A DNA stretch of 64,000 nt, taken from an uncultured Acidobacteriota bacterium (GTDB lineage: Bacteria; Acidobacteriota; Thermoanaerobaculia; UBA5066; Gp7-AA6). Each line of letters begins with the position of its first letter. Within the stretch, counting starts at the first letter, position 1. This document shows positions 10,416 through 38,305 of the stretch, piece after piece. Location: positions 320,999 through 384,998 of the forward strand of contig CAVXRK010000011.1 of the NCBI GenBank assembly GCA_963764025.1. Direction: 5' to 3'. Below the pieces are notes generated by a model. It searched no databases. It was not told the origin of the DNA and saw only the letters and a list, made by a program, of their open reading frames with translations. The position numbers were made by a program, and so were the translations under genes.

Positions 10416-10552
10416 CGACCACGAAATTTCGTGGCGCAGGGGCCGCGGCGCGAACCCCGCCAAAATGTATAAGCGACTGAATCCAAACGACTTCGGTCTG
10501 CCACTCGGCCGCCGAAAACCTGGCTCCGCCGTTGCTCTTGCAGGGGTCAGCC

Positions 10553-22959: not shown

Positions 22960-23335
22960 GCGCCGCCGCCGCGAGGAGGACCGGTTTCGTGGCGACATCG
23001 TCAGCGCACCTTCACGACGTAGTAGCTGAATGGCCGCCGGGACCTTCTGGAACCAGTGGGGCATGCCCGCCGGAACGATCATGACGTCACCCTTCTCGAG
23101 CTGCCGCGTCTCGCCGGCGGCGATCGACGGCGCCGCGGACCTCGTCCGGCGCGGTCGTCTTCGGGTCGACCACCGTGCCGCCCGTCACGAACGTGGCCGT
23201 GCCGTCGAGAACGTAGATGATGTCGGCGTCCTTGCGCGTGGACCTCCGCCATGGCCGGCCCCGTCGCGCCGCGTGGCGTGGACCATGTAGCGCTCGCCCT
23301 GGTCGAAGAGCACCGCGCCCTTCGCGAAGGCCGCC
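22960..23335 (-). pseudogene. cupin-domain protein, frameshifted; possibly contiguous with the upstream DUF336 ORF
   Basis: AAFAKGAVLFDQGERYMVHATRRDG...DADIIYVLDGTATFVTGGTVVDPKTTAPDEVRG...GDVMIVPAGMPHWFQKVP is spread over three frames. Confidence 0.45.
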
Positions 23336-23339
23336 CGGA

Positions 23340-23859
23340 CCGTGGCCGGCGTCGAAATAGGTGACCTTCGCCGGCGCCGCCCCGACCGCCGCGGCCCCGA
23401 GCGATCGCGAGCTCCTCGTCCTGCGGCCGCGCTGGCCGCGCCGCGAGACGCCGACCGCGCCGACGATCGGCGCCGTCGACCATGATCGGCACCCCGCCCC
23501 GGAGCGGCGTGAAGTCGCCCACCGTCGTCATGGCGGTGCGGCCCTTGTTGATCAGGTCTTCGAAGAAGCTCGTCGGCTTCTTGAAGAGCGCCGCGGTCCG
23601 CGCCTTGCCGATCGAGATCAGCCCGCCCGCGGCGAAGGTCCCGTCGATCCGCTCGACGGCCATGAGGTTCCCGCCGTCGTCCACGACCGCGATCGCGCCG
23701 GTCGTGCTGCGCTTCTTCGCTTCGCCGACGATCGCGCCGATCGCCCGGTGCGCCCCGTCGAGAGTCAGCGTCTTCTTCTCCATCCACTGGCCGCGCGCCC
23801 GCCGCGGAGATCAGCATCCCCGCGGCCGTCCAGGCCAGGATCGCATTGCGTCGCATCGT
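23340..23859 (-). pseudogene. second DUF336 (GlcG/HbpS-like) gene with a signal peptide, frameshifted
   Basis: MRRNAILAWTAAGMLISAAGA (frame a), then [69 protein letters not shown]...GGVPIMVDG...QDEELAIA (frame b). Confidence 0.55.
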
Positions 23860-24138: not shown

Positions 24139-24405
24139 CTAGGGCTTCGCCCGCGCCTTGAGGATCGCCCGGACGAGTTCTTCGGGCGCCTCGTCGGCGG
24201 CCGGCCGGTCCGGATCCGCGTAGGCGGCGCGGCCGAGCCGGATCGACTCCTGGTACTGGCGGATGTATTCCCGGCAGGGGTCGCAGACGCCGAGGTGCCG
24301 CTCGAACTCGCGGTGGCGATCTCCCGGCAGCTCGTTTTCGAGATACAGGTAGAGGAAGTCCAGCAGTTCCCGGCAGGTGATGTAGGGACGCTGGTCGGCG
24401 CTCAT
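24139..24405 (-). CDS. ZAS-type (zf-HC2) anti-sigma factor-like protein, 88 aa
   Basis: MSADQRPYITCRELLDFLYLYLENELPGDRHREFERHLGVCDPCREYIRQYQESIRL carries the HxxxCxxC motif. Confidence 0.7.
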   Translation of the reverse strand: MSADQRPYITCRELLDFLYLYLENELPGDRHREFERHLGVCDPCREYIRQYQESIRLGRAAYADPDRPAADEAPEELVRAILKARAKP

Positions 24406-24508
24406 GAGGGGCTCACACTTCACTCCCGACCCTTCGATGCCGGTGCGGGGGGGAGGTTTCGGCGGATTTTCGGACGATCCCGATCTTTGACATAATCCGC
24501 CCACTCTC

Positions 24509-24844
24509 ATGGATCTGGCGACGCGCGAAGACGGCGGGGTGACGATCATCACGGTCACGGGGGACCTCGTGATCGGCGACGCCGAGTCCAACTTCAAGAA
24601 GGCCGTCACGCGCCTTCTCGAGGAGGGCCGCGTGAACCTCCTCATCGACCTTTCCGCCGTAGGGTTCCTCGACAGCTCGGGTCTCGGCGCCCTGGTGCGG
24701 GCGCTGACGAACTCGCAGAAGGAAGGCGGCCAGACCAAGCTGCTGAACGCCGGGCCCCAGATTCGCAAGCTCCTCCAGATGACCAAGCTCGATTCGGTCT
24801 TCGAGATCCACGAGGACATGGAGGCGGCCGTCTCGAGCTTCTGA
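24509..24844 (+). CDS. STAS-domain anti-sigma-factor antagonist (SpoIIAA-like)
   Basis: ITVTGDLVIGDAESNFKKAVTRLLEEGRVNLLIDLSAVGFLDSSGLGALVRAL...KLLNAGPQIRKLLQMTKLDSVFEIH. Confidence 0.8.
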   Translation: MDLATREDGGVTIITVTGDLVIGDAESNFKKAVTRLLEEGRVNLLIDLSAVGFLDSSGLGALVRALTNSQKEGGQTKLLNAGPQIRKLLQMTKLDSVFEIHEDMEAAVSSF

Positions 24845-24881: not shown

Positions 24882-27323
24882 TTGGCGGACGAACCCGAGG
24901 AACCCGGCGGCTTAGCGGGTGACGCGGTTGGGGCGTCCGACGGGACCGAGGCGCAGGTTTCGGCCCTGGCGGAGCTCGCTCTGTGCGAGAACCTCGCCCA
25001 GACGTCGGGCTGGGCCGCTCGCTGGAGCGCGACGATGGCCGGCGCCGACGCGACGCTCCTGTGGGCGCCCGACACCGTCCATCCCATCTTCCTGTGCATC
25101 GGCGCCGAAGGCCAGGGCGTCGAAAAGTTCCTGAGGCGTTCGGCGCCGCGGGATACCGGTTACATCCACGAGCTCGTCCGCGACCGCCAGCCGATCGTGC
25201 TGGCCGGAGACGAGTTGACGACGAACGACCCGTTCGTGCGCGGCCTTTCGGGCTATCGGGCGTGCATCGCCGTGCCGCTCGAGGCCGAGGGTCTGGTCGT
25301 CGGCCTGCTCGCGATTTTCTTCATCCAGATGCCGAACGCCGAGCAAGCGCTCGCCCGCCTCGAGCGCTTCCTCGAGCAGGCGGCGCCGGCCCTCGGCCGG
25401 GCGCTCCGGTCCGAGCGCAAGACCGTCGGGATGCTGCACGCGATCGAGCGGCTCACCAACCTCTACGACCTCTCGAAGGCCTTCGGATCGACGATCGACA
25501 TCGACGAACTCTCGACGCTCATCGTCCGCAAGGCCGCCGACTTCGTGACGGGCGAGACGGCGTGCCTCTGGATGCTCGAAGGCGAGGACGACGTCATCGT
25601 CGCGGGGTCCGCCGTCAACGAGAACTACGACGTCGAGTCGCCGCCCGACGCCGTGGGCGGCGCGCTCGTCGGCGACGTCGTGGCCGACCAGGTTTCCATC
25701 CGCCGCAACCGGATCCCCGAGGACGACCCGGTCGCGACCGAGAATCCGTCCTACCCGGTCCGCTCGGCGCTCGCCGTGCCCCTCGTCGAGGACGAGATTT
25801 CCATCGGGGCGCTCGTCGTCGCCAACAAGCGGGGGCGCCACCCCGAGTTCACGGCCGAAGACGAGGAGCTCTTGAACGACCTCGCCCGCCAGGCCGTGCG
25901 GGCGTTGCGCACGGCGCGCCAGCACGAGGCCGAGAAGAAGGTCGAGGAGCTCGACGCCCTGCTCGCCGTCAGCCGTGAGATCACCGCCACCCTCGATCTC
26001 GACAAGGTGATGCAGACGATCGTCAACGCAACCTCGGCGCTGATCGATTACGATCGCTGCGGCATCGCGATCCAGGAGAAAGGAAGGCTGCGGCTGGGCG
26101 CGATCTCCGGAACCGCCGAGTTGGACCGCAAGGACCCGGACGCCCGGCGCATCGAAGACCTGCTCCAGTGGGTCTTCCTCTCAGGAACGGACACCGCGGT
26201 CACCCAGACCGAGGACGGTGCGATCTCGGCGGACCGTCCCGAGACCGAGGAGAAGTTCCGCGCCCTCTTTCAGGAGACGGGCCTACGCTCCTTCTACGGG
26301 GTCCTGCTGAAGGACGAGGAAGGCAAGCTCGGAGCGCTCGGCTTCGAGAGCAAGGAGCCGCTCGTCTTCGACGAGGAGACGCGAGATCTGCTCTCTATCC
26401 TGGTCAACCAGGCCACGGTCGCGGTCCGCAACGCGCAGCTGTACCAGCAGGTGCCGCTCGCCGGCTTCTGGAAGCCGCTGCTCGAGAAGCGGCGCAAGCT
26501 CGCTGCGATCCCGAAGTCACGGCGCCGTGCCTGGGCCATTCGGGTCGGCGTGGCCGCGCTCATTCTCGTCGTGGCCCCGTGGCCCCTGCGCATCACCGGC
26601 CCGGCGCGGGTCCTGCCGGGACGGCGTGCCGCAGTCACCTCCATGGTGGACGGCGTCGTGGGAACGGTGCTGCGCCGGGAAGGGGATCGCGTCGAGGCTG
26701 GCGACGTCATCGCGACGCTCAAGGACGAGAGCTACCAGGCGGCTCTCGCGGAAGCCAGATCGAACCTCACGCTGGCGGAGAGCGATATCGCGCGGTCCCG
26801 CCAGAACGCCGACGCCGGCGCGGTGTTCGACGCCGAGGCGCGGCGCCGCGAGGCCCTGGCGCGCATCGCGCTCGAGGAGGATCGGCTCTCGCGCACCCGA
26901 CTGACCGCCCCCGCCTCCGGGGTCATCGTTACCCCGCGCATCGAGGAACGGGTCGGGCAACTGCTGTCCCGAGGGGCAGAGCTGTGCGTCGTCGCCGACG
27001 TCCGGAACGTCACGGCCGAGGTCGCCGTTCCCGAGTCCGATGCCGGGCTGGTCAAGGCCGGCCAGAAGACTACCTTGAAGTTCAATTCCTACCCTGGCTC
27101 TCTCTTCCGTGGCGAAGTCGCGCGAGTCGCGCCCCGCATTCGCGAGGAGGGCGACCAGCGTTTCGTGATCGCCGAGGTCGCCGTGTCGAACCCCGACGGC
27201 AGGCTGAAGACCGGCATGCTCGGGAACGGCAAGGTCTCCGTCGGCACCCGCCGCGTCATCACGGCGCTCTTCCGAAAGCCGCTGCGCTACCTCTGGAGCA
27301 AAATCTGGCCCCTGCTTCCGTGA
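24882..27323 (+). CDS. triple-GAF domain protein fused to a TM segment and an HlyD-family periplasmic adaptor (membrane fusion protein)
   Basis: Three GAF-like blocks (aa about 20-170, 190-340, 360-520). TM: AWAIRVGVAALILVVAPW. HlyD beta-sandwich/lipoyl-like region: ITGPARVLPGRRAAVTSMVDGVVGTVLRREGDRVEAGDVIATL...LTAPASGVIVTPRIEERVGQLLSRGAELCVV. 813 aa. Confidence 0.75.
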   Translation: MADEPEEPGGLAGDAVGASDGTEAQVSALAELALCENLAQTSGWAARWSATMAGADATLLWAPDTVHPIFLCIGAEGQGVEKFLRRSAPRDTGYIHELVRDRQPIVLAGDELTTNDPFVRGLSGYRACIAVPLEAEGLVVGLLAIFFIQMPNAEQALARLERFLEQAAPALGRALRSERKTVGMLHAIERLTNLYDLSKAFGSTIDIDELSTLIVRKAADFVTGETACLWMLEGEDDVIVAGSAVNENYDVESPPDAVGGALVGDVVADQVSIRRNRIPEDDPVATENPSYPVRSALAVPLVEDEISIGALVVANKRGRHPEFTAEDEELLNDLARQAVRALRTARQHEAEKKVEELDALLAVSREITATLDLDKVMQTIVNATSALIDYDRCGIAIQEKGRLRLGAISGTAELDRKDPDARRIEDLLQWVFLSGTDTAVTQTEDGAISADRPETEEKFRALFQETGLRSFYGVLLKDEEGKLGALGFESKEPLVFDEETRDLLSILVNQATVAVRNAQLYQQVPLAGFWKPLLEKRRKLAAIPKSRRRAWAIRVGVAALILVVAPWPLRITGPARVLPGRRAAVTSMVDGVVGTVLRREGDRVEAGDVIATLKDESYQAALAEARSNLTLAESDIARSRQNADAGAVFDAEARRREALARIALEEDRLSRTRLTAPASGVIVTPRIEERVGQLLSRGAELCVVADVRNVTAEVAVPESDAGLVKAGQKTTLKFNSYPGSLFRGEVARVAPRIREEGDQRFVIAEVAVSNPDGRLKTGMLGNGKVSVGTRRVITALFRKPLRYLWSKIWPLLP

Positions 27324-27329
27324 GCTCTC

Positions 27330-28620
27330 GTCCTGGCCGACTCCTCTCCGCGACCCGCATCGAAGAGAGCGCGGCGGCCCTCGCGGCCCTCCACGGGACG
27401 GCGAGCGACCGACCTGCGATCCGCTCCGACGCCGTGATCCGGCGCGTCGTGCAACTGGGGGAGATCCACTGGGTGATCAAGAACCCGGAGACCACGAAGT
27501 ACTACAACTTCGACGACCCGGAGTGGGGTCTCTGCCAGCTCTTCGACGGCACGCGCACGGTCGCTCAGGTCCACGCCGACTACCAGGCACAGTTCCCGCG
27601 CGAGAGGATCGAAATGTCCGTCATCCGCGAGTACGAGGAGATGCTCCGGGAGATGGGCCTGATCGAGCAGTCTGCGGCCGAAAGGAACCTCAAACTCCTC
27701 GCGAACGCGAAGACCGCGCGCCAGCGCGCCGCCGAGGAAAAGGCCGAGGGCTTCAACCCGTTCTTCCTCCTCTTCCACGTCCTCGACCCCAACCGCTTCC
27801 TGGACCGCACCGTGAAGTACGTCCGCTGGATCTGGACGCCACCGGTCGTGGCCGCCGCGCTGATCTTCGCTGCCTGGGCTTTCGGGGTCATCCTCATGCA
27901 CTGGGGCGCGATCTGGAGCGGGACAGTCGAACTTTACGCCCTGACATCGAAGCCACTTCTCGACATCATGCAGTTCTTCTTCATCTTGACGTTCATCGGG
28001 CTGTTTCACGAGTTCTCCCACGCGTACGTCACCAAGATCTACGGCGGCGAAGTGCACGACATCGGCCTCGCGCTGCTGTACTTCACGCCCGCGTTCTACT
28101 GCGATACGACCGACTCGGTGCTTTTTACAAGCAAGTGGCAGCGGCTGTGGGTCACAACGGCGGGCATCTACATCGAGGCCATCATGTGCTCGGTGGCCAC
28201 CGTCGCGTGGATGGTTTTCGTACCCCGACACGCTCCTCCACGAGATCGCCTTCAAGACGATGCTCTTCACGGGTGTTTCGACGATCTTTTTCAACATCAA
28301 CCCGCTGATCAAAATCGACGGGTACTACGCGCTCTCGAGCGTTCTCGAGATCCCGGACCTGCGGGAGGAGTCATTCCGGTACATCGGGACGTGGTTTCAG
28401 CGCCACGTCCTGCGCCTCCCGTCGAAGTCCCGGCCGTTTCCCGCCGAAAACGCCGGATCTACTGGATCTTCGGCTCGTTCGCTCTGGCTCTGGGTGGCCG
28501 TCGATCATGCGGTTCATCGCCGGGGTCTTCTTCAACCTCTACAACCACTTCTTCCCGAACTGGGCCGTCGTGCTGCCGCCATCACGCTCTACCGCCTCTT
28601 CCGCCAGCGCGTACGCCTGG
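27330..28620 (+). CDS. site-2-protease-like M50 family membrane metallopeptidase, with at least two frameshifts
   Basis: HEFSHAYVTKIYGGEVHD (HExxH) within TM helices. A second motif NINPLIKIDGYYALS (LDG-like) lies in a shifted frame. Start and end are approximate. Confidence 0.6.
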
Positions 28621-28669
28621 TGACGCGCACGGCGCACCTCTTCTATCTCGACAAGAAGGAGTTGCTCAT

Positions 28670-29500
28670 GTCCCTCGCGTCCGCTCGGCGCTGCTGGCCG
28701 GCGCCGTCGTCCTGCTCTGCTTGTCCTTGTGCCATGGAGCCGGCGTACGTTGCGTGCCCCCGCCGCCCTAGGCCGATGGCAGCGGCCCGCCTCGAGGCAC
28801 CAGAGGACGCGGTCGTAACGCGGGCGCTGGTCGAGGAAGGCGACCGGGTCGAGGCCGGCCAGCCGTCCTTCAGCCTCGTGAGCGCAGCGGCAACGGAGGA
28901 GACGGCGGGCGTACGTCTGAGGGCGAGCGGTTGGCTCGGGGAAGCCAGCCGCGAAAGGAGGCCGGTGAGCCGGACGCGTTTTCGCGTCCGAGACCCGCGG
29001 CATGGCGGCAAACGCCGCGCTCAGAAGTGGCCTCGCCCGGGAAGAGCGCCTGCTCATGAAGAGCCCGTGGCCGGCCGCATCCTGACGCCGTACCTGCGCG
29101 ACCTCAGGGTCGTTCCGTCCCCGCCGGAACGCTGCTGGCCGAGGTCGGCGAGGACCGACAGATGGCGGCGGAGCTCACGGTCTCGGAACGGCTCCTCGAG
29201 GACATCGTACCCAATGCGCAGGTTTCGGCGCTCTTCCGCGGTCATCCCCGCCCCGTGCGCGGCACCATCGTCTCGTGGCCCCGGCGGCCATGGCGTAGCC
29301 CAAGACCGCCGGCGGGTTCGACCCGGCCGCGCCGCAGGAACACCCCGAACAGTTCGTCGCCCTCGCCGTTTTCGAAAACACCGACGGGAGCTTGATCGCC
29401 CGGAATGATCGGATACGCCAAGATCTACGGCCGTCGAGCGTCCTACGCCGGTCGGGTCTGGCGAGTGCTCAAGCGGTGGGTGCAGTCGGTGGCGTGGTAG
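28670..29500 (+). CDS. HlyD-family secretion/adaptor protein (second, short), frameshifted
   Basis: AAGGAG SD before ATG 28670. MSLASARR, then after a shift the TM SALLAGAVVLLCLSL. Later: EAPEDAVVTRALVEEGDRVEAGQPSFSLV; LTVSERLLEDIVPNAQVSALFRGHPRPVRGTIVSV; IGYAKIYGRRASYAGRVWRVLKRWV*. Confidence 0.5.
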
Positions 29501-29532
29501 TCGAGGGGGGCCGCGCGGGTTCCAAAAGAAAA

Positions 29533-29554
29533 GCGCCCCGCCGGAGCGGGGCGC
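29533..29554 (-). terminator. Rho-independent terminator (GCGCCCCGC-cgga-GCGGGGCGC followed by a U-tract on the minus strand); possibly bidirectional
   Basis: A perfect 9-bp GC stem with a 4-nt loop. On the minus strand it is followed by TTTTCTTTT. It lies between the convergent HlyD-like gene and the repeat-protein gene. Confidence 0.8.
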
Positions 29555-29587
29555 TTCGAACTCCGAAAAACGTCGACTTAGAAGCTG

Positions 29588-29962
29588 GCCTTGCCCGTCG
29601 CCCGAGCGCCAATCGACTTGCCCGTCGCCCGAGCGCCAATCGACTTGCCCGTCGCCCGAGCGTCGATCGACTTGGCACCCGCACGAGCGTCAATCGACTT
29701 GGCCCGTCGCCCGAGCGCCAATCGACTTGCCCGTCGCCCGAGCGCCAATCGACTTGCCCGTCGCCCGAGCGCCAATCGACTTGCCCGTCGCCCGAGCGCC
29801 AATCGACTTGCCCGTCGCCCGAGCGCCGATCGACTTGGCCCGTCGCCCGAGCGCCGATCGACTTGCCCGTCGCCCGAGCGCCAATCGACTTGCCCGTCGC
29901 CCGAGCGCCGATCGACTTGCCCGTCGCCCGAGCGCCAATCGACTTGCCCGTCGCCCGAGCCG
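29588..29962. repeat. 27-nt tandem direct repeat array, about 14 copies, unit CGACTTGCCCGTCGCCCGAGCGCCAAT, with a few 28-nt and variant units, inside a coding sequence
   Basis: Direct inspection. Units differ by A/G at one position. Two units are 28 nt (TTGGCCCG versus TTGCCCG). Confidence 0.95.
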
Positions 29963-30100
29963 AGACCGAATGGCTCGTGGGCGAATGCGTCGGGATCCGC
30001 CGAAGCTCTCGACGCGAATCTCGGGCAGGTCCTTGCCCGTGGCTTCCTTGATCTTGGCCTTCTGAGCGTCCGTCAGCTTGATCTTGACTTCGTTACCCAT
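29690..30100 (-). CDS. tandem-repeat protein of unknown function (unique N-terminus followed by 9-aa repeats)
   Basis: GAAGGAGGG SD 8 nt before the ATG. N-terminus MGNEVKIKLTDAQKAKIKEATGKDLPEIRVESF. The repeats read as (LGRRASRLA)n or (GKSIGARAT)n depending on frame; the 28-nt units switch frame. A terminator follows the stop. Confidence 0.65.
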   Translation of the reverse strand: MGNEVKIKLTDAQKAKIKEATGKDLPEIRVESFGGSRRIRPRAIRSRLGRRASRLALGRRASRSALGRRASRLALGRRASRSALGRRAKSIGARATGKSIGARATGKSIGARATGKSIGARATGKSIGARATGQVD

Positions 30101-30132
30101 GTGAAACCCTCCTTCTTGATGCCAATACAAGA

Positions 30133-30149
30133 GGCAAGAAGAGGGCCAG
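30133..30149 (-). promoter_or_regulatory. sigma54 (-24/-12) promoter CTGGCCCTCTTCTTGCC upstream of the repeat-protein gene
   Basis: GG-N10-GC spacing with TTGC at -12. About 35 nt upstream of the ATG. An NtrC-family activator is encoded immediately upstream. Confidence 0.55.
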
Positions 30150-30235
30150 AATTGGCGACGCCTGCCTCCGCTCCCAAGCCTTTCGTTTTCAGTTGCTTGC
30201 AAAAGAGCTCCGCCGATCGTCAGGGCCGGCTGGTT

Positions 30236-30272
30236 GAAACTTCCTTTCACCGAGGTTGAATTTCTCAACCGG
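30236..30272 (-). promoter_or_regulatory. candidate enhancer (UAS): inverted repeat GGTTGAG-aaat-TCAACC plus a third TTTCAACC half-site
   Basis: A palindrome about 100-130 nt upstream of the sigma54 promoter, in the intergenic space between the response regulator stop and the repeat gene. Confidence 0.35.
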
Positions 30273-31653
30273 TCAGAGCCCGTGCTTCCGGCAGAGATAC
30301 TTGATCTGGTTGGCGTCGAGCCCCAGGCGGCGAGCCGCTTCCGCCTTCACCCCGCCGGCCGCCGCGATCGCCTCCGCGAGCGTCCGGCGCTCGAAATCCT
30401 CGACGGCCGACGCGAAGTCGCGGACCGTGGATGCCCCGCCGCCCGCGGGAGCGCGCGGCGCCTCCCGGAGGGCCCGCGGAAGCTCCTCCTCGCCGATCTC
30501 GGGCGCGTCGGAAAAGAGGACGAGCATCTCGACGACGTGCTGGAGCTCGCGCACGTTGCCCTTCCACGCGTGGGCCCGAAGCCGGGCGAGGGCGCCCTCG
30601 GAGAAGCGGCGCCCGGTCTTCCCGTGCCGCTGCCCGAAGAGCGCCAGGAAATGGTCGGCGAGCAGCACGATGTCTTCCCCGCGTTCGCGCAACGGCGCGA
30701 TCCGGAGCGGAACGGTGTGGATCCGGTAAAACAGGTCCTCGCGGAACGTTCCGGCGGCGACCCGCGCTTCGAGGTCCTCGTTGGTGGCCGAAATCAGCCG
30801 GAAATCGACGGGGATCGGCCGCCGTCCGCCGACGCGCTCGACCACCCGGCTCTCGAGCACCCGGAGGAGCTTCGACTGCACCCCGGGCGAAAGTGTGCCG
30901 ATCTCGTCGAGGAAAATCGTTCCGCCCGAGGCGAGCTCGAACCGGCCGGGCCGCGATGCGATCGCGCCCGTGAAGGCGCCCTTCTCGTGGCCGAAGAGCT
31001 CCGCCTCGGCGAGCGACTCCGGCAGCGCCGAGGCGTTGACCGGCACGAATGCGCGGTCGCGCCGGGGGCTCGCGGCGTGGATCGACTGCGCGACGAGGTC
31101 CTTGCCCGTCCCGCTCTCCCCCGAGATGAGCACGGTCGCGTCGCTGCCGGCGACCCGCTCGATGTCGCGGGCCAGGGCGAGCATGGGCGCGCTCCGGCCG
31201 ATCAGCCGGTCGAGGGAGCGGGAGGGCTGGGCGGCCGCACGGAGCTCGCGGTTCTCGACGAGCAGCCGCCGGCGCTCGAGCGCGCGGTCGAGGATCAGGA
31301 GGAGCTCCGCCGTGTCGATCGGCTTCTGGAAGAAGTCGAAGGCGCCGAGCGCGACCGCCTGCAGCGCGTACTGCCGCTCCCCCTCTCCGGACATCATCAC
31401 GACCGTCGCCTCCGGGTCGCGCTCCCGCACGTAACGCAGCAGGTCGAGCCCCTCCTGCACCTGACCGGAGGGCGGCAGCCGCATGTCGAAGAGGTAGAGG
31501 TCCGGGTCCGAGGCGCAGAGCGCCCGGCCGTGGGTCGCGTCGCGGGCCGACGACACCGCGAACCGTCCCTTGAGCGCCCAGGTCAGCTGCTCGAGGAGAA
31601 AGGCGTCGTCCTCGACGATGACGATCCGTCCCAGGGGACGCGCCGGCTCGGTC
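30273..31653 (-). CDS. sigma54-dependent two-component response regulator (NtrC family: REC + AAA+ + Fis HTH)
   Basis: GTG start overlapping the kinase stop (GTGA). REC domain: RIVIVEDDAFLLEQL...DLYLFDMRLP. AAA+: GESGTGKD, GAFTGA, ELFGHEKG. C-terminal HTH: AEAARRLGLDANQIKYLCRKHGL. The listed ORF start is an upstream in-frame GTG. Confidence 0.85.
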
Positions 31654-32365
31654 ACCCCGCCTCCCCGGCGCTCCCCGGCAGCGACAGGCGGATCAACGTC
31701 CCCCCGCCCGGCTGCGAAAGGATCCGGATCGATCCCCGGTGGAACTTCACGATCTGGCTGGCGGTCGACAAGCCGAGGCCCACGCCTTCCGGTTTCGTCG
31801 TCTCGTACGGCTGGAAAAGTCGGTCCCGCAGGAACTCCGGCGTCATCCCGGCGCCATTGTCGATGAATTCCACGACCGCGCGGGGCCGCCGCGCGGAGCC
31901 GCCCGTGTAGGTCCGCACGAGGACCTTGCCCTCGGGAATCGCCGCCTCCCACGCGTTCTCGAGCAGGCTCGCGAATGCGTCGCCGAGATAGACCGGGTCT
32001 CCCCAGATCCGCGGAACGTCGCCCAGCGCGAGCGACACGGACGGGCCGTCCCCGGGCGTTCCGCGCGCGCCGCGGCGCGTCGGCTTGCCGGCGATCTTCC
32101 GGAGCAGCTCATTGACGTCGAGCTCGACCTTGACCAGCAGCGCGTCCTCGCGCTCGACGAAACGGCCGGCGATGTCCTCCAGCCGCTCGACGGTCGACGC
32201 CAGGAGGTCGCGTACGGTTTTTCGGAACTCCCCGTCCTCCCAGTGCTCGTCCAGGTTGGACAGCAGGAGCCGGAGGCGAAACGACATGTTCTTGACGTCG
32301 TGGACGAGCACGCGGTCGAGCGCCGAGCGCAGGCGCGCCGAGGAACGGGGCCGTTTCGGCGGCAT
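31652..32365 (-). CDS. histidine kinase (HisKA + HATPase_c) with no sensor or TM domain
   Basis: H-box LVHDVKNMSF. N/G-boxes: LGDAFASLLENAWEA...VEFIDNGAGM...GVGLGLSTASQIV. 237 aa. Confidence 0.75.
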   Translation of the reverse strand: MPPKRPRSSARLRSALDRVLVHDVKNMSFRLRLLLSNLDEHWEDGEFRKTVRDLLASTVERLEDIAGRFVEREDALLVKVELDVNELLRKIAGKPTRRGARGTPGDGPSVSLALGDVPRIWGDPVYLGDAFASLLENAWEAAIPEGKVLVRTYTGGSARRPRAVVEFIDNGAGMTPEFLRDRLFQPYETTKPEGVGLGLSTASQIVKFHRGSIRILSQPGGGTLIRLSLPGSAGEAG

Positions 32366-32388: not shown

Positions 32389-33141
32389 CTACCGGGCCGC
32401 GGGCGCCGGGAGGCGGACTTTGACCGCCATCCCGGGGCGCAGCACCGACTTGCCCGGCTCGCGCCGGACGCGGACCACGACCTGGAAGGTGCTGCTCGCC
32501 GCGTCGACGGTCGGGCTGATGAACTGGATCTCGCCCGTCGTCTTCGCGTCGGGGAAGCGCTCGGCAACGACGTCGACCCGGTCGCCCACGCGGACCTGGA
32601 GCAGACGTTCCTCGGGAAGATAGATGCGCGCGAGCAGGGGCTCCGTCGCGGTGATTTTGAAGAGAGGCTCGATGCGGTCTTCGATCACCTTCTGGCCGAT
32701 CCGGGCGTACTTTTCCGTCACCACGCCCGCGAACGGGGCGCGGATTACGGCATAGTCCTTCTGCGTCTTCATCTTCTCCCAGCGCGCCACGGCCACGGCG
32801 TACTGGGCCTTCTTCTCGTCGAGGTCCTGGACGCTCATCACCTTCGAATTCGCCAGGGCCTCCGCGCGGTCGTACTCGGCCTTGCGCAGGTCCATGTCTT
32901 CCTTGGCCTCGCGCACGTCGGCATCGAGAGCCCGCGTATCGAGGGTCGCCAGCGTCTGGCCCTGGACGACCGCCGTGCCCCGGTCGACCACGATCGTCTC
33001 GACGATGCCGGTGATGCGCGCCGACACGACGACGTCCTGGTCCACCATCAGGTGGGTGGAATAGACACCCTCGTCGCCGGGCGCGCCTCGGGCGGCCGCG
33101 CCGGCGAGCAGGAGCAGAAGCAGCGGCAAAGCTCTTTTCAC
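32389..33141 (-). CDS. short HlyD/RND-type membrane fusion (periplasmic adaptor) protein with a signal peptide
   Basis: MKRALPLLLLLLAGAAA signal peptide. Lipoyl/beta-barrel motifs: VSARITGIVETIVVDRGTAVVQGQTLATLD...VIRAPFAGVVTEKYARIGQKV...QVRVGDRVDVVAE. Confidence 0.75.
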   Translation of the reverse strand: MKRALPLLLLLLAGAAARGAPGDEGVYSTHLMVDQDVVVSARITGIVETIVVDRGTAVVQGQTLATLDTRALDADVREAKEDMDLRKAEYDRAEALANSKVMSVQDLDEKKAQYAVAVARWEKMKTQKDYAVIRAPFAGVVTEKYARIGQKVIEDRIEPLFKITATEPLLARIYLPEERLLQVRVGDRVDVVAERFPDAKTTGEIQFISPTVDAASSTFQVVVRVRREPGKSVLRPGMAVKVRLPAPAAR

Positions 33142-33183
33142 GATATCGGAAAAACGACGAGATGCTATCGTTTACGAAGTCTC

Positions 33184-33528
33184 ATGTCGATCACCCTGGC
33201 GAGCGAATCCCCGTCCATCGAGCAGAAGGGTCTGCGGGCGAACTTCTCCTGGACCATGTCCGAGCCCTGGGACGAGCGCCGCCTCGCGGCCTTCCTGATG
33301 ACCAAGCACCGGAGGAGCGACTCGGACTGGACCCGCCGCCCGTCGCCCTTCTTCGCGTCTCTCGGGCAGGCCACCGTCGAGTGCTCGGTTCCCGTCGCCC
33401 GGCCGGAAGCCCTCCCCGACCTCGCCGCGATCCTGACGGTCGAGCTGACGGGTATCCTGACGGGGGCGAGCGCGATTTACGAGCAGATGGTGGCCGGCCA
33501 GGACTGGAAAACGGTCTCCCCGCCCTGA
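33184..33528 (+). CDS. hypothetical protein (114 aa) upstream of the DGQHR gene
   Basis: High GC3 and consistent codon usage (MSITLASESPSIEQKGLRANFSWTMSEPWDERRLAAFLMTKHRRSDSDW...). Same strand, 92 nt before the DGQHR ATG. Confidence 0.45.
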   Translation: MSITLASESPSIEQKGLRANFSWTMSEPWDERRLAAFLMTKHRRSDSDWTRRPSPFFASLGQATVECSVPVARPEALPDLAAILTVELTGILTGASAIYEQMVAGQDWKTVSPP

Positions 33529-33620
33529 AAAGGGCCCCGTTTCCGGCGGTCATTTCTCTAGGCTCCAAACCGCCCGACGGCGGTATACGCTTTCGCCGCC
33601 CGGGCCGAGGGACTTACCCG

Positions 33621-34784
33621 CCGGGCGACCCGGACGGCCAGGAGGTGACCATGATCTCGGTGCCCTCGCTTCGGCTGAACCAGTTTGGAGTGCGGTTCTA
33701 CGAGGCCCTGCTCTCGGGCGCGGACCTGCAGTCCCTGGTCGGCTTCGAAGTCCTGTCCTTCGGCCCCGGCAGCGAAACAACCCGCGGAAAGGCCGCCAAG
33801 AAGGCCCCTCACGGACGGGTCAACTGGGAGTTCCTCGAAAAGCGGATCTCGGCGTCCGAGCAGGCTTTCCAGCGGCCGATCATCAAGAAGAAGATCGACG
33901 AGCTCGTCACCTACTACCTCCAGTGCGCCGACTCCGGGACCCTTCCCGCCATCCCCGGCAGCGTTCTCCTCGTTTCGGAGAAGCGGCTCGAGTACGCCCC
34001 GTCGGGCGGCCGGTCCGACGCCGGCTCGCTCAAGCTCCCGGAGGAGTCCGGCATCCTCCGGGCGCTCGACGGGCAGCACCGCCTCCTTGCCCTCCACCAG
34101 CTCGCCGAGAAGCACAGCCTGCGGGACTTCCAGGTGCCGGCCGTCGTGTTCGACAACCTGACGCCCGACCAGGTCGTCGAGCTCTTCGTGACGATCAACA
34201 GCAAGCACACGAAGCTGAACCCGTCGCACCTGATCTCGCTCGCCGGCCGGCGCCTCTACCGCGACGACAACCTCGCGGCCGCCCACGACGTCGTCCGGAC
34301 GCTCAACGAGGACGAGGGCTCGCCGCTGAAGGGCTCGATCAAGGTCCTCGGCATCGGCAAGGGCACGGTGACCCAGGCCTCGCTCGCCGACGAGCTGCGC
34401 GACGTGTTCGCCGCGATCGACACCGCCGGCGGGCGCGTGGCCCGGGAGTTCCGCGAGAACGCCCGCCGCTTCTTCCTGAACTACTTCAAGGCCGCCGCCC
34501 GGGCCTTCCCCGCGGCCTTCGCCGGACGCAAGTACTCGATCAAGAGCTCGACGTCGCTGCGCGCCTTCATCCGCATCGTCCCGTACGTGATCGCGATGGT
34601 CCGCAAGCGGGGCGGCGACGTCTGGTCCGCCGGCGAGCTCGACGCGGCGCTGCGCCCGTGGGCCGAGGCGATCGGCGACCGCCGCTTCGAGACCGACACC
34701 GTCTGGAAGGAAAAGCTGACGGGCGGAACGCGGTCCGGGGTCGAGATTCTGGCGCGGGAGCTGCGCCAGGGTCTGAACACCTGA
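33621..34784 (+). CDS. DGQHR-domain protein (DndB-like, ParB/Srx nuclease superfamily)
   Basis: AGGAGG SD. Hallmark LRALDGQHRLLALHQLAE motif. 387 aa. No dndACDE genes nearby. Confidence 0.75.
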   Translation, partial: PGDPDGQEVTMISVPSLRLNQFGVRFYEALLSGADLQSLVGFEVLSFGPGSETTRGKAAKKAPHGRVNWEFLEKRISASEQAFQRPIIKKKIDELVTYYLQCADSGTLPAIPGSVLLVSEKRLEYAPSGGRSDAGSLKLPEESGILRALDGQHRLLALHQLAEKHSLRDFQVPAVVFDNLTPDQVVELFVTINSKHTKLNPSHLISLAGRRLYRDDNLAAAHDVVRTLNEDEGSPLKGSIKVLGIGKGTVTQASLADELRDVFAAIDTAGGRVAREFRENARRFFLNYFKAAARAFPAAFAGRKYSIKSSTSLRAFIRIVPYVIAMVRKRGGDVWSAGELDAALRPWAEAIGDRRFETDTVWKEKLTGGTRSGVEILARELRQGLNT

Positions 34785-34837: not shown

Positions 34838-35422
34838 TTGGCCGCAATCGGAGGCTGCCTCGTCATCCTGCTCGTCGGCGCCGTCGTTTGCGCCATTTGG
34901 GCGATCTGGCGCTACAACAACCTCGTCTCGCTCCGCAACCAGGTCGCCAACGGCTGGAAGCAGATCGACGTCCAGTTGAAGCGCCGGCACGACCTCATCC
35001 CGAACCTCGTCTCGGCCGTGAAGGGCGAGATGCAGTTCGAGCAGGACACCCTCGAGAAGGTGATCCAGGCCCGCAACTCCGCCGTCGCCGCCCGGGGCGT
35101 CGCCGACGCCGCCGACAAGGAGAACGCCCTGACGCAGACCCTCTCGCGCCTCTTCGCCCTGGCGGAGAACTACCCGACGCTCAAGGCCAACGAGTCGGTC
35201 AAGACGCTCATGGAGGAGCTCTCGTCGACGGAGAACCGGATCGGCTTCGCCCGCCAGTTCTACAACGACATCGCGACGCGCTACAACACGTCCCAGCAGG
35301 TTTTTCCCGACAGCCTGATCGCGCAGGCGTTCAAGTTCCAGCCGGTCGAGCTCTTCGAGATCCAGGACGCCGCCGAGCGCGCGGTGCCGAAGGTGGACCT
35401 GAGCCTTCGCCCTCCGCAATAG
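34838..35422 (+). CDS. LemA family protein
   Basis: N-terminal TM then RYNNLVSLRNQVANGWKQIDVQLKRRHDLIPNLV...ENYPTLKANESVKTLMEELSSTENRIGFARQFYND. Confidence 0.85.
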   Translation: MAAIGGCLVILLVGAVVCAIWAIWRYNNLVSLRNQVANGWKQIDVQLKRRHDLIPNLVSAVKGEMQFEQDTLEKVIQARNSAVAARGVADAADKENALTQTLSRLFALAENYPTLKANESVKTLMEELSSTENRIGFARQFYNDIATRYNTSQQVFPDSLIAQAFKFQPVELFEIQDAAERAVPKVDLSLRPPQ

Positions 35423-35449: not shown

Positions 35450-36410
35450 ATGCCTCTCAATCTCTACGACCAGCAGAAGCGCAACATCGCGAACACGCGG
35501 ATGTTCATCGCCGGGTTCATCCTGCTCCTCGTCCTCGTCGGGCTCGGTGCCGACGGCATGCTCTACGCCGGCGGGGTTTCGCCGGGGCTGCCGATCGCCA
35601 CCCTCGGGGCCCTCTGCCTCGGAAGCTTCTCGGCATGGTGGTCCCTCCAGGGGGGCGACCGGGCCGTGATCGAATCGACGCGGGCCGTTCCCCTCGACCC
35701 TGCCGATCCCCGGCAGCGGGTCCTCGAAAACGTCGTCGAGGAGATGGCGATCGCGAGCCGGGCTGCCGAAGCCCGCGATCTACGTCATCCCGGACGGCGA
35801 CCCCAACGCCTTCGCGACGGGCATCGGCCCCGAGCGCTCCTCGATCGCGGTGACCCGGGGATTGCTCGAGAAGCTCGACCGCGACGAGCTCCAGGGCGTG
35901 GTGGCCCACGAGCTCTCGCACGTCCGCAACTACGACGTGCGATTGATGACCGTCGTCGCCGCCCTCGCGGGCGCGATCCTGCTGCTATCCGACTGGAGCC
36001 GCCGTGGCTTGCGGTTCGGGGGCCGCCGGGATTCCTCGGAGAAGGGCGGAGGCCTCGGCCTCCTCTTCGTCGCGCTCTGGCTGGTGTCGATCGTGCTCGC
36101 GCCGATCATCGCCCAGCTCGTGTCGCTCGCGGTCTCGCGCCAGCGCGAATACCTCGCCGACGCGTCCGGCGCGGAGCTGACGCGCAACCCCCTGGGCCTC
36201 GCGTCGGCGCTCGAGAAAATCGCCGCCTCGGTCGAGCCGACGCCCTCGATCAAGCAGGGCATCGCGCACCTGTGCATCGAGGATCCGCGCGGACGACCCG
36301 TCAACGGCCGGGAGGGCTTCGTCGCGAACCTCTTCGCGACCCACCCGCCCGTCGAGAAGCGGATCGCGGCGCTGCGGGAGATGGCGTACCAGTCGGCCGG
36401 ACGCGCCTAG
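35450..36410 (+). CDS. htpX: HtpX-like M48 zinc metalloprotease; +1 shift in a GGG run near 35765
   Basis: N-terminal TMs (MFIAGFILLLVLVGL). After the shift: LPKPAIYVIPDGDPNAFATGIGPERSSIAVTRGLLEKLDRDELQGVVAHELSHV (HExxH)...REYLADASGAELT. Confidence 0.75.
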
Positions 36411-36438
36411 CCTCCCGAGCTGGCGCCCGGCCCGGAGG

Positions 36439-36729
36439 TCAATCGAGGTCGATGTCGCGAACGGGCTTCGAGGTGTCGCCCTTCGTCTTCTCGAACAGCT
36501 CCTGGAACTTGCGGTTGAGGACTTCCTTCTTCGACTTCTCCGCTTCGACGGAGGCCGCGAACTTCTTCTCGCGCTCCTCGTCCTGGCCCTTGAGAGCCCC
36601 GATCGCGTCGTCGACCGAGCCGAACTTGCGCGGGACCTTCGGCGCCTCGTGGGCGACGACCGCCTTGAGGTCGGCGTCGACCTTGAGGCGCGCGTTGCAG
36701 CAGGGGCAGAGAACGTCGAAATCCATCAC
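36439..36729 (-). CDS. small zinc-ribbon-like hypothetical protein (CPCC, Lys/Glu-rich tail)
   Basis: MMDFDVLCPCCNARLKVDADLKAVVAHE.... Uniformly high GC3 codon usage argues for a real gene. Confidence 0.5.
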   Translation of the reverse strand: MMDFDVLCPCCNARLKVDADLKAVVAHEAPKVPRKFGSVDDAIGALKGQDEEREKKFAASVEAEKSKKEVLNRKFQELFEKTKGDTSKPVRDIDLD

Positions 36730-36736
36730 GCCGAGT

Positions 36737-37150
36737 CTATTCCGAGTCGCCCCGCTTGTGGCGGATCCGGTCGCGCCGGGCCCGCTTGTCGGGGCGCCCG
36801 GCGTTCCGGCGCGGCGCGAGCAGCCGGTCGAGCCGCCGGGCCTCGAGAACCTCGGGCGGCGGCGCCGGGGTCACGTCCTCGTACAGCGTGCGCGCCGCGG
36901 CCTTCGGAATCGAGCGGTCGGCCAGGCCCTTCACGACGAGCTCGCGCCGCATGCCCGAATCGTCGCGCGCCGCCAGCCCGATGCGGTCGCCCGGCCGGAC
37001 CTCCCGATGCGCCTTGGCTCGCGACCCGTTGACGTCGACCTTCCCGCCCTCGCAGGCCTCCTTCGCCTGGCTGCGCGTCGGAAAGACGCAGGCGACGTCG
37101 AGCCACACGTCGAGACGGACGGCCGCGAGGGGCTCGGGCTCGCCCTTGCC
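36737..37150 (-). CDS. S4-domain RNA-binding protein (Hsp15/RlhA-like); start uncertain (possible TTG)
   Basis: S4 motif VRLDVWLDVACVFPTRSQAKEACEGGKVDVNGSRAKAHREVRPGDRIGL. The long N-terminal extension in the ORF is likely spurious. Confidence 0.55.
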   Translation of the reverse strand, partial: GKGEPEPLAAVRLDVWLDVACVFPTRSQAKEACEGGKVDVNGSRAKAHREVRPGDRIGLAARDDSGMRRELVVKGLADRSIPKAAARTLYEDVTPAPPPEVLEARRLDRLLAPRRNAGRPDKRARRDRIRHKRGDSE

Positions 37151-37154
37151 CAAG

Positions 37155-38114
37155 CTACGCGCTCCGGGAGGCGCCGCGGCGGGACTCGAACCAGGCCTTG
37201 AGCTCCGGCGAAGCCGCCGGGGGCTCGGCCGCGGGCCGCGCCAGGAAATACCCCTGCGCGGCGGCGACACCCTCCGCGGCGCAGACGTCGAGGTCCTCGG
37301 CCGACTCGACGCCCTCCGCGATCAGCCGGAACGCGAACTCGCGCGAGAGGTCGGCGAGAAATTTGAGGATCGCCCGCCGGCGCGGGTCGGTTGCGATCCC
37401 CCGCGTCACCTCGCTGTCGACCTTGATGAACTCGGGCTGCAGGGCGTGGCAGAGCTGGAGCGTGCCGTAGCCGGAGGTCACGTCGTCGAGGGCGATCACC
37501 GCGCCGAGATCGCGCGGTACCACGAGGGCGGTCGAGAGGCCGGCGGCAGCCGGCAGGGTCTCGACCTCCACGATGTCGAGCACGAGGCGGGAAAACGAGA
37601 CGCCTCGCCGGTCCGCCTCCTCGCCGAGCGCGGAGAGGGCGTCCTCGGACCGGCCGATCAGGCGAGGATTGACGTTCAGGAACACGAGGGCGCTCTCGGG
37701 CAGCCGAGCGGCCGACTCGAGCACGCAGGCCCAGGCGAAGCGTTCGAAGGCCGGGGCGAGGTTCAACGCGTCGGCGGCCGGAAAGATCTCGGCAGCGAGC
37801 CGCATGATCCCCCGGCCCCGCGCCCGCAGGAGGCCCTCGTGGCCCAGGATGTCCCCGGTCTTCAGGTCGAAGATCGGCTGGAACTCGACGAAGAACTCCC
37901 CCGTCGAGAGCTCGTCGGCGAGCCAGAGCGCATCCACTTCGTGCCGCGCCCGCGGCAGCGGAGTCAGGCGGCTCATGGCGTCCCACTTGGTCTGCTGCAT
38001 GTCCTCGGGCGCGACGCGCACCCGCTCGGCGAGCGGACCGAGGACTTTGCTCAGCTCGTCGAGGAAGTGCTCGGGGGTCCGCTCCACGAGCAATCGACGG
38101 GCTCGGCCGTACAT
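37155..38114 (-). CDS. EAL-domain protein (c-di-GMP phosphodiesterase-like); start may lie further upstream, up to about 38270
   Basis: EFFVEFQPIFDLKTGDILGHEGLLRAR...FLNVNP...ALDDVTSGYGTLQLCHALQPEFIKVD...LIAEGVESAEDL...AQGYFLARP. Confidence 0.75.
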   Translation of the reverse strand: MYGRARRLLVERTPEHFLDELSKVLGPLAERVRVAPEDMQQTKWDAMSRLTPLPRARHEVDALWLADELSTGEFFVEFQPIFDLKTGDILGHEGLLRARGRGIMRLAAEIFPAADALNLAPAFERFAWACVLESAARLPESALVFLNVNPRLIGRSEDALSALGEEADRRGVSFSRLVLDIVEVETLPAAAGLSTALVVPRDLGAVIALDDVTSGYGTLQLCHALQPEFIKVDSEVTRGIATDPRRRAILKFLADLSREFAFRLIAEGVESAEDLDVCAAEGVAAAQGYFLARPAAEPPAASPELKAWFESRRGASRSA

Positions 38115-38305
38115 CGGGGCGCGGACCCAGCTCCGACCGAACGCCGCGGCGACCGCGCGCTCGGCTTCGACGCCGTCGGGCCGTACGAACACCGCGCGCG
38201 CTTTCCGCCAGCGATCAAGTCGGCCAAGGATCTGGCCGTCCAGAACGCTTCCGGATGCTTTCACCGATTCGATTGTACGTGCGGACGGGCCGCGCGGGAG
38301 AGCTT

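Follow-up and report, generated by a model that had tools for sequence, protein, structure and literature searches.

Which protein does a tandem-repeat gene encode when its array, as assembled, is read through all three frames, and what might such a protein be made for? This question is raised by a gene on the minus strand of a 64,000-nucleotide (nt) stretch of contig CAVXRK010000011.1, from an uncultured acidobacterium (hereafter the window; its first letter is position 1 in all coordinates given here). An earlier account of this DNA, made without database searches (the sequence-only reading), had described the gene as something like a contingency locus, driven by a sigma-54 promoter and flipping between frames. 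The answer that we favor, at a probability of roughly 50%, is that the repeat protein is a leader-guided precursor, or substrate, of a convergently encoded protease that carries a RRE, the recognition element of RiPPs (peptides that are synthesized ribosomally and modified after translation), fused to an M50-type domain; that the gene is under dedicated sigma-54 two-component control; and that the frame flips are consensus errors. The best clue to function is, in fact, a conserved convergent operon (STAS, GAF-HlyD and RRE-M50-HlyD genes) that the sequence-only reading had missed.

A conserved, putative leader and the protease encoded opposite it

The gene starts with an ATG at 30100-30098, and its product begins with 35 residues, MGNEVKIKLTDAQKAKIKEATGKDLPEIRVESFGG, that precede the array; that this N-terminus is unique had been seen correctly, although its length had been given as 33 residues. 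An exhaustive HMMER search with these 35 residues, a check that had been proposed along with the first description, returned 66 cluster representatives (50% identity), of which some 60 are small proteins of one repeat family, all of them named "hypothetical protein" in the databases. We recovered 18 loci from genomes and 29 from metagenomes, and the former are all in metagenome-assembled genomes (MAGs) of Acidobacteriota, class Thermoanaerobaculia, save one bin labelled Acidithiobacillales. This last locus (L015, JBLMYG010000459.1) is a complete cluster on an 8.4-kb contig, and its placement could be due to a binning error or to horizontal transfer. No description of the family was found in databases or in the literature searched, where the report on daptides (10.1101/2023.03.08.531785) was the only relevant one. 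The window protein, as assembled or frame-corrected, belonged to no family in Pfam or NCBIfam scans, and a sequence search of the PDB with the family profile gave no match. Judged from its relatives, the repeat gene is real and is a member of a conserved, undescribed family that is nearly confined to Thermoanaerobaculia.

Throughout the family the N-terminus reads M-x-NEVKIKLTDAQKAKIKEATGKDLPEIRVE-S/T-FG, with 27 invariant columns in an alignment of 12 sequences, and is followed by a G/S-x-PAxS linker and then by the tandem repeats. The repeat units differ by lineage and include GKSIAGRAA (17 to 18 copies), ARSARSVEA, TKAATKASLRAG, TKAPLRAG, MRAAKS, TKA, KPTAKVALR, SLKSP, AAPRG, APRAN (25 copies), TTRAN, SPRTN, KVAP and KHLKHT, with acidic or neutral units (DTSIESA, SKDLS, EQGLR) being rare. 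Such a pairing of a conserved head with a hypervariable tail resembles that of leader/core precursors. Over 50 tails, alanine accounts for 26% of the residues and arginine, lysine and serine for 11% each, cysteine and tryptophan are absent, and 45 tails are strongly polycationic, with an isoelectric point (pI) close to 12 and, per 100 residues, a net charge between +10 and +30. The C-termini of the family include F, V, I, L, A and Q, the window protein ending in GKASF. No signal peptide is present, and in the AlphaFold2 (AF2) model of the repeat protein only a helix at residues 11-22 is ordered, the remainder being predicted to be disordered. One member of the family (P0107, 66 residues) is made of two tandem leader-like segments, SRLRIQLTDDQQKQISDATGKSVT and SRLTIRLTDDQQKQIKDATGKSVTELTVGS, with the repeat tail nearly absent.

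The repeat gene and the convergent operon face each other across a shared terminator, and the RRE-M50-HlyD gene lies downstream of the repeat gene in all 32 loci for which 1.5 kb or more of downstream sequence is available. The best curated match of this protease is the daptide intramembrane metalloprotease NF041824 (1.2e-33; 116.8 bits against a cut-off of 300). Its N-terminus matches PqqD weakly, and a Pfam PqqD assignment is precomputed for the homolog P0052. In the AF2 model of the N-terminal half of an intact protease, the first 95 residues (predicted local distance difference test, pLDDT, 75-89) form a domain of three strands and three helices, for which the top PDB matches found by Foldseek were TbiB1 (5v1u/5v1v), PqqD (5sxy), lasso B1 (6jx3), TigE, CteB and SkfB, with a probability of 1.00 and a TM-score, normalised to the target, of 0.63-0.77. 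All of these are RREs that were solved with leader peptides or belong to RiPP maturases, and an RRE fold for the N-terminus of the protease is supported by the model. With regard to the STAS gene of the same operon, its 3' end is conserved in 12 of 12 other loci inspected.

Reading frame and evolution of the array

The tandem array is 13.7 copies long in the window, with 93% matches, and the initial description of a 27-nt coding repeat of about 14 copies, preceded by a strong Shine-Dalgarno sequence, proved accurate on both counts. Its three frames read LGRRASRLA, GKSIGARAT and VDWRSGDG, and the assembled ATG frame runs through all three of them by way of two 28-nt units, 136 nt apart, each of which holds an extra C that shifts the frame. 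The sequence-only reading had left the choice between LGRRASRLA and GKSIGARAT open. On comparison with the relatives, the translated frame is GKSIGARAT, because the intact homologs P0002 and P0001 carry it, and because in no other frame are the differences between units synonymous. Both homologs (P0002 containing VSARATGKSIGARASGKSIGARASGKSIGARATGKASF) share the N-terminus of the window protein and have intact tails, with that of P0002 ending in GKSIGARATGKASF just before the stop codon. The GKSIGARAT frame alone reaches the TAA at 29578-29580, 20 nt before the hairpin, and ends there in GKASF; to follow it, three corrections are needed, namely one base added in the C-run at 29992-29994 and the two extra C's removed. 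As for the claim that the gene ends at a GC-rich terminator, the hairpin is present, but the assembled reading frame stops within the array. An Rfam scan of positions 29300-30400 gave nothing but sub-threshold matches to this hairpin, so that no known RNA is indicated there. A CRISPR-like or other non-coding array was considered and rejected, as there are no spacers and selection at the codon level is clear.

The 28-nt units do exist and do shift the frame, as had been reported, but in all likelihood the flips are not biology and instead represent consensus indel errors in a locally poor long-read stretch. Between 28215 and 30000 (1.8 kb) there are about 19 single-base indels, 16 in the protease gene and three in the repeat gene. 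Aligned at the nucleotide level with the intact ortholog of locus L003, the protease gene of the window is broken from 28215 onward by 11 deletions and five insertions, spread over 28215-29394, while positions 27330-28215 contain zero indels; the nucleotide identity over the first eight indels is 0.80, equal to that of the clean part. A density of about 19 indels in 1.8 kb without extra substitutions is the signature of a poor long-read consensus, not of decay or of programmed frame switching; the region surrounding the tandem array seems to have been polished badly, or not at all, in a long-read assembly. The flanking genes are whole: the regulator, the kinase, the DGQHR gene and the two other HlyD genes could each be aligned with a relative over the whole conserved length, in one segment and with no change of frame. 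Within the family, frameshifted copies are confined to assemblies with Flye-style contig names, namely L009 and L010, which are MFD MAGs with shifts within the array, and L019 and L020, which are ENA contigs where other genes are fragmented too. In short-read data the frame is preserved, both in every one of the 24 complete copies on JGI metagenome contigs and in the MAG copies. How many copies the window truly contains should be judged with the same caution as the indel-rich stretch.

If the frame changes were real, the locus would be either a pseudogene decaying together with the protease, or a frame-switching, phase-variable gene making LGRRASRLA, GKSIGARAT and VDWRSGDG peptides, both of which we consider highly improbable. 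It is true that the two 28-nt units lie exactly 136 nt apart, as if a five-unit block with its extra C had been duplicated, and that both functionally linked genes are affected while the regulators are intact. However, genuine decay should have brought substitutions and larger deletions besides the 16 indels that are found within 1.2 kb of the protease gene, the extra base does not lie within a slippery tract, and the in-frame short-read copies and the synonymous pattern described above both speak against it. Programmed frameshifting was likewise rejected, since the shifts are not shared by any relative.

When codons are compared between adjacent units of the family arrays, 583 differences are synonymous and 479 non-synonymous in the coding frame, as opposed to 126:923 and 36:995 in the other two frames, and in single arrays the ratio can be as extreme as 15:0 (L003), 51:8 (L004), 32:3 (L025) or 35:4 (L034). 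Because synonymous differences between units prevail in the coding frame only, the peptide sequence of each repeat unit is, on this codon evidence, under purifying selection. Copy number does vary, as had been suspected: L013 and L035 have flanks that are 100% identical and arrays that differ by exactly one 27-nt unit, and between L047 and L048, with flanks 99.5% identical, the length difference is 69 nt, with the caveat that short-read assemblies may collapse repeats. The further claims of perfect, slippage-prone repeats and of a contingency locus did not hold up. In most relatives the arrays are not perfect DNA repeats, their units having diverged at synonymous sites, and unit lengths (9-54 nt) are always multiples of three. 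The locus does resemble contingency loci in having a tandem repeat inside a coding region and a copy number that differs between near-identical strains, but here the unit consists of complete codons and is usually imperfect at synonymous sites, so slippage would alter protein length and not expression. We see length polymorphism rather than an on/off contingency switch, because copy number always varies in frame. A different kind of change is seen between L025 and L031, which share their flanks and have near-identical leaders and linkers, yet one array consists entirely of APRAN units and the other of TTRAN units. L036 and L041, also with near-identical leaders and linkers, carry mixtures of TAKDLS and SKDLS units. 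The two pairs indicate, at the level of sequence comparison, a rapid concerted turnover of repeat units.

Histone H1-like repeat proteins, such as AlgP, Chlamydia Hc2 and Bordetella BpH1, have Ala/Lys/Arg/Pro-rich tandem repeats in variable number and an extreme pI. It is therefore fair to ask whether the repeat protein is a disordered, cytoplasmic polycation of this sort, induced through sigma-54 and binding DNA, RNA, polyphosphate or membranes, with the protease being merely syntenic or in charge of its turnover. Such a protein would fit the charge of the 45 polycationic tails, where Ala, Lys, Arg, Ser, Thr and Pro abound and Cys and Trp are absent, as well as the predicted disorder and the lack of a signal peptide and of a nearby transporter gene; units of three to five residues (TKA, KVAP, APRAN) suggest, moreover, that composition outweighs sequence, and the very short ones are best explained in this way. 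We nonetheless regard this explanation as unlikely. The synteny with the RRE protease extends to all 32 loci, across regulators that are only 53-60% identical; an RRE domain must have a peptide to bind, and the repeat protein is the only conserved short open reading frame (ORF) found in the cluster; acidic or neutral tails exist (L017, L036, L041, L047 and L048); and the exact unit is kept through synonymous changes (see the ratios above for L003, L004 and L034), which is more than composition alone requires. H1-like proteins differ from this family, with its conserved 34-residue leader, its obligatory synteny with the protease and some acidic tails, and no homology between them was detected in Pfam, NCBIfam or PDB searches. 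Taken together, the synteny in 32 of 32 loci, the purifying selection on the unit and the acidic variants fit a leader-bearing precursor better than an H1-like protein. In the five loci with acidic or neutral tails, the leader is itself more divergent (MAKEVRIxLT...), and L017 at least keeps the same gene cluster.

Probable sigma-54 control and neighboring genes

Two regulatory elements proposed in the sequence-only reading were found where they had been placed. The first is the promoter CTGGCCC-TCTTC-TTGCC, which had been put about 35 nt upstream of the gene and lies 33 nt ahead of the start codon, its GG-N10-GC spacing being correct. In the window this pattern has three matches against 1.1 expected, which is not significant alone. 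The other two TGGC-N7-TTGC matches, at 34935-34949 on the minus strand (inside, or antisense to, the DGQHR gene) and at 10521-10535 on the plus strand, have no palindrome nearby and are probably due to chance. The significance of the promoter comes instead from its conservation, as TGG[CT]-N7-[TA]TGC is present in 47 of 47 homologous upstream regions, at -43 to -93 from the ATG, in comparison to 0.25% of shuffles. The second element is the GGTTGAG-N4-TCAACC upstream activating sequence (UAS), predicted about 100 nt further upstream; it was located about 106 nt upstream of the promoter as GGTTGAGAAATTCAACC, a perfect palindrome that is unique in the window. Its core, TTGA-N5-TCA, recurs about 118-120 nt upstream of the promoter in 25 of 47 loci under a strict pattern (shuffles 0.8%), and a tandem second site is visible in most loci. 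Neither the -24/-12 element nor the UAS was found upstream of the HlyD-kinase-regulator operon or of the GAF-HlyD operon, the repeat gene being the only one in the window with the regulator's predicted site. Sigma-54 dependence and activation by the adjacent regulator, as predicted, are strongly supported by this phylogenetic footprinting.

Domain scans also bore out the adjacent genes that had been named, that is a sensor-less kinase, a sigma-54 regulator and an HlyD adaptor, and the regulator is immediately upstream of the repeat gene, on the same strand, in 38 of the 40 loci with enough upstream sequence. Its domains are REC, Sigma54_activat (4.3e-66), AAA_lid_14 and HTH_8, and its best NCBIfam match is the PEP-CTERM-box regulator, at 427.4 bits against a cut-off of 502.6. 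The kinase has no recognizable sensor domain and no transmembrane or hydrophobic segment, and it matches only residues 482-679 of PrsK (120.7 bits against a cut-off of 300). PrsK/PrsR of the PEP-CTERM/XrtA systems are thus the nearest curated pair and share with this locus a regulator with REC, AAA+ and Fis-type helix-turn-helix domains. Both proteins, however, score below their equivalog cut-offs, the kinase lacks the whole membrane and sensor part, and the target repeat protein has no PEP-CTERM motif. As is usual for NtrC-family control, paired palindromic sites lie here about 110-120 nt from a GG-N10-GC promoter. In architecture, as far as domains and sites can tell, the locus is a textbook NtrC/sigma-54 module and not a PrsK/PrsR equivalog.

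The truncated form of the kinase, which is reduced to DHp and CA domains and has no transmembrane segment, leaves room for a feedback loop, in which the repeat protein, or a fragment of it set free by regulated intramembrane-type proteolysis, would be the missing input of the kinase, and STAS, GAF and HlyD domains would gate the protease on cytoplasmic and periplasmic cues, autoregulating the promoter of the repeat gene itself. The cluster does contain many signalling parts (a two-component pair, an M50 protease, STAS and three GAF domains), and the repeat gene alone carries the regulator's site. This inference is purely architectural, though, and it leaves unexplained both a hypervariable tandem-repeat tail under selection at the unit level and the presence of three periplasmic adaptor domains; we therefore hold it to be quite improbable.

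The features of the locus are listed in Table 1. Beyond them, and divergent from the HlyD-kinase-regulator operon, there is a gene for a DGQHR-domain (DndB/DpdB-like) protein at 33162-34784 (plus strand), followed by an ORF of 583 residues at 35450-37201 (plus strand) without any Pfam match. The DGQHR protein is 85-98% identical across loci whose regulators share only 60-85%. The DGQHR gene is present in most loci but missing from L011 and L013-L016, and on account of this absence it is probably not core to the cluster. On the other side, a zf-HC2 anti-sigma-like ORF at 24139-24480 (minus strand) is divergent from the STAS gene, and the two suggest a partner-switching input into the protease operon. 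The wider neighborhood includes an EAL-domain protein (cyclic-di-GMP phosphodiesterase type) at 37155-39695 and an HbpS-like protein at 23079-23783, both on the minus strand.

Table 1. Predicted features of the repeat locus and its neighbors, in window coordinates.
Feature	Position	Strand	Basis and remarks
STAS-domain protein (anti-sigma-antagonist type)	24509..24844	+	The GAF-HlyD gene follows 37 nt downstream
Fusion of three cytoplasmic GAF domains, transmembrane segment and periplasmic HlyD adaptor	24882..27323	+	Domain scans, synteny
Fusion of RRE, HExxH M50-type membrane protease and C-terminal HlyD-like domain, ~730 residues	27404..29500	+	Domain scans; RRE fold from model
GC-rich hairpin terminator, 12-bp stem, between two convergent genes	29530..29557	.	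Hairpin search; Rfam matches there sub-threshold
Repeat protein, full coding region after frame correction, ~173 residues	29578..30100	-	TAA at 29578-29580; intact homologs end in GKASF or GKAGF before the stop
Repeat ORF as assembled, 136 residues	30100..29690	-	Stops at in-array TGA 29690-29692
Tandem array encoding (GKSIGARAT)n, 27-nt unit, 13.7 copies	29590..29960	-	Tandem Repeats Finder; frame from homologs and synonymous pattern
Extra C, second 28-nt unit (gggCCaag), leading to in-array TGA 29690-29692	29701..29702	-	Reading of three frames
Extra C, first 28-nt unit (gggCCaag)	29837..29838	-	Reading of three frames
First frame break, C-run one base short, after ESFGG; probable true reading ESFGGSPTHSPTSHSVSARATGKS	29992..29994	-	Match to L001, ESFGSPTHSPASKAVSARAAGKS
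Putative N-terminal leader MGNEVKIKLTDAQKAKIKEATGKDLPEIRVESFG, 34 residues, near-invariant	29999..30100	-	Family alignment; G[GS]xPAxS linker comes next
Shine-Dalgarno sequence AAGGAGG, 7 nt before ATG	30108..30114	-	Minus-strand reading; kept across homologous loci
Sigma-54 -24/-12 element TGGCCCTCTTCTTGC	30134..30148	-	Pattern match; 47/47 loci
UAS site 2, degenerate second copy ggtgaaaggaagtTTCAACC	30232..30251	-	Seen in sequence
UAS site 1, perfect palindrome GGTTGAGAAATTCAACC	30254..30270	.	Begins 3 nt after the regulator stop codon
NtrC-type response regulator (REC, sigma-54 AAA+, Fis helix-turn-helix)	30273..31952	-	Pfam/NCBIfam scans; real start probably near 31650
Soluble histidine kinase, 237 residues, H-box (HDVKN) DHp and HATPase_c only	31652..32365	-	Pfam/NCBIfam scans, hydrophobicity
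Short HlyD/RND-type periplasmic adaptor, 250 residues, N-terminal signal peptide	32389..33141	-	Domain scans; first gene of the kinase-regulator operon

Possible fate of the repeat tail

If the repeat protein is the substrate of the RRE protease, as we propose, the phosphorylated regulator would bind the paired GGTTGA-N5-TCAACC sites and bring about sigma-54 transcription of the repeat gene. The invariant 34-residue head would then act as a leader and be bound by the RRE domain, a role for which it is the best candidate because it belongs to the one short ORF of the cluster that was found to be conserved, and because none of the surrounding enzymes is as well conserved. The protease would cut near the conserved FG-G/S-x-PAxS boundary and release the repeat tail (about 14 copies of GKSIGARAT, ending in GKASF) as the functional product. 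The last and weakest step would take the released tail to the envelope or to the exterior, a destination suggested solely by the three periplasmic adaptor domains of HlyD type that the cluster encodes.

Several observations weigh against this proposal. Domain scans of the cluster flanks found no ABC, RND or MFS transporter and no TolC-like gene, so export would have to proceed without an identified motor. No modifying enzyme was recognised in Pfam/NCBIfam scans of the conserved cluster and its flanking ORFs, a negative that covers recognisable families only and leaves an unrecognised enzyme possible, and for lack of such an enzyme the system is possibly not a RiPP in the strict sense. The protease operon, being convergent, is not co-transcribed with the repeat gene, and it is without the sigma-54/UAS signature. 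Very short units, such as TKA or KVAP, favor a bulk polycation over discrete bioactive peptides, and five of the 50 tails are, as mentioned, acidic or neutral. Lastly, the verdict that the frame flips are artefacts is based on comparison with relatives rather than on reads. With respect to what generally marks a RiPP locus, an RRE-fold protein is there, and so is, nearby, a short precursor in which the leader is conserved and the core variable (32 of 32 loci), but not a modification enzyme.

The closest known relatives are the daptide clusters, in which an RRE-site-2-protease fusion was proposed to remove the leader (10.1101/2023.03.08.531785). Like the daptide peptidase MpaP/DapP (NF041824), the window protease has an N-terminal RRE fused to an HExxH M50-type membrane protease, and in both systems it is encoded beside a short precursor with a conserved leader. 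The differences are also clear. At 116.8 bits the window protease falls far below the NF041824 cut-off of 300, which makes it a relative and not a member, and it has an extra C-terminal HlyD-like domain; its presumed precursors do not end in the C-terminal threonine that daptides convert to N2,N2-dimethyl-1,2-propanediamine (Dmp), the window protein ending in GKASF; and the "core" is here a long tandem repeat. None of the daptide enzymes (the DUF-RRE accessory protein, the alcohol-dehydrogenase-type decarboxylase, the aminotransferase and the methyltransferase) was detected by Pfam/NCBIfam in the cluster and its flanking ORFs. By analogy, the system is an RRE-dependent, leader-peptide-like one that is related to the daptide leader peptidase and fails the tests of daptide membership.

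Multi-core precursors, such as those of the graspetides (plesiocin among them), the cyanobactins, the fungal repeat peptides processed by KEX2 and the yeast alpha-factor, carry several copies of a short peptide behind one leader. The repeat family is similar in that its units drift at synonymous sites and yet stay the same as peptides, but the cluster encodes no ATP-grasp enzyme, cyanobactin protease or other maturase, and its units can be as short as three to five residues, with no evident recognition or cleavage motifs between them. A conceptual parallel can also be drawn with the peptidase-containing ABC transporters (PCATs) that export bacteriocins with an HlyD accessory protein, where a leader-recognising peptidase is physically coupled to components of the periplasmic-adaptor type. 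In the window, the leader-recognising protease would likewise be joined to an HlyD-type adaptor domain, by fusion, but neither a C39 peptidase nor an ABC ATPase is present. A double-glycine leader of the C39 type was tried as an explanation of the FGG boundary and rejected, due to the misfit of the boundary and of the hydrophobic spacing and to the lack of that peptidase. More tentatively, and with the odds against it, the cluster could be a new peptide-maturation and delivery machine, composed of the RRE-M50 protease fused to an HlyD adaptor, the GAF-HlyD protein and the free adaptor, which without an ABC ATPase or separate modifying enzymes would recognise the invariant leader and release or export a lineage-specific, repeated polycationic peptide, its production being set by the sensor-less kinase, the NtrC-type regulator and a sigma-54 circuit dedicated to one gene.

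For those who work with long-read metagenome assemblies, this locus is a cautionary case, as frame-switching repeats in them may be local consensus errors. The evolutionary pattern of the arrays is itself unusual, with units that are swapped wholesale between lineages and yet identical at the protein level within an array. RRE-fused site-2 proteases have only recently served as a handle to discover one class of RiPPs, the daptides, and the present locus suggests a second use of such enzymes, with a different architecture, in which an HlyD-like fusion is paired with a polycationic, tandem-repeat substrate bearing a conserved leader. Were the cluster indeed a maturation and delivery machine, the repeat family would be the first tandem-repeat substrate known for RRE-site-2 proteases, and the coupling of protease and adaptor would be new as an architecture. 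The system comes from the poorly known and uncultured class Thermoanaerobaculia and is compact and directly testable, with six or seven genes, one dedicated sigma-54 promoter and one candidate RRE ligand.

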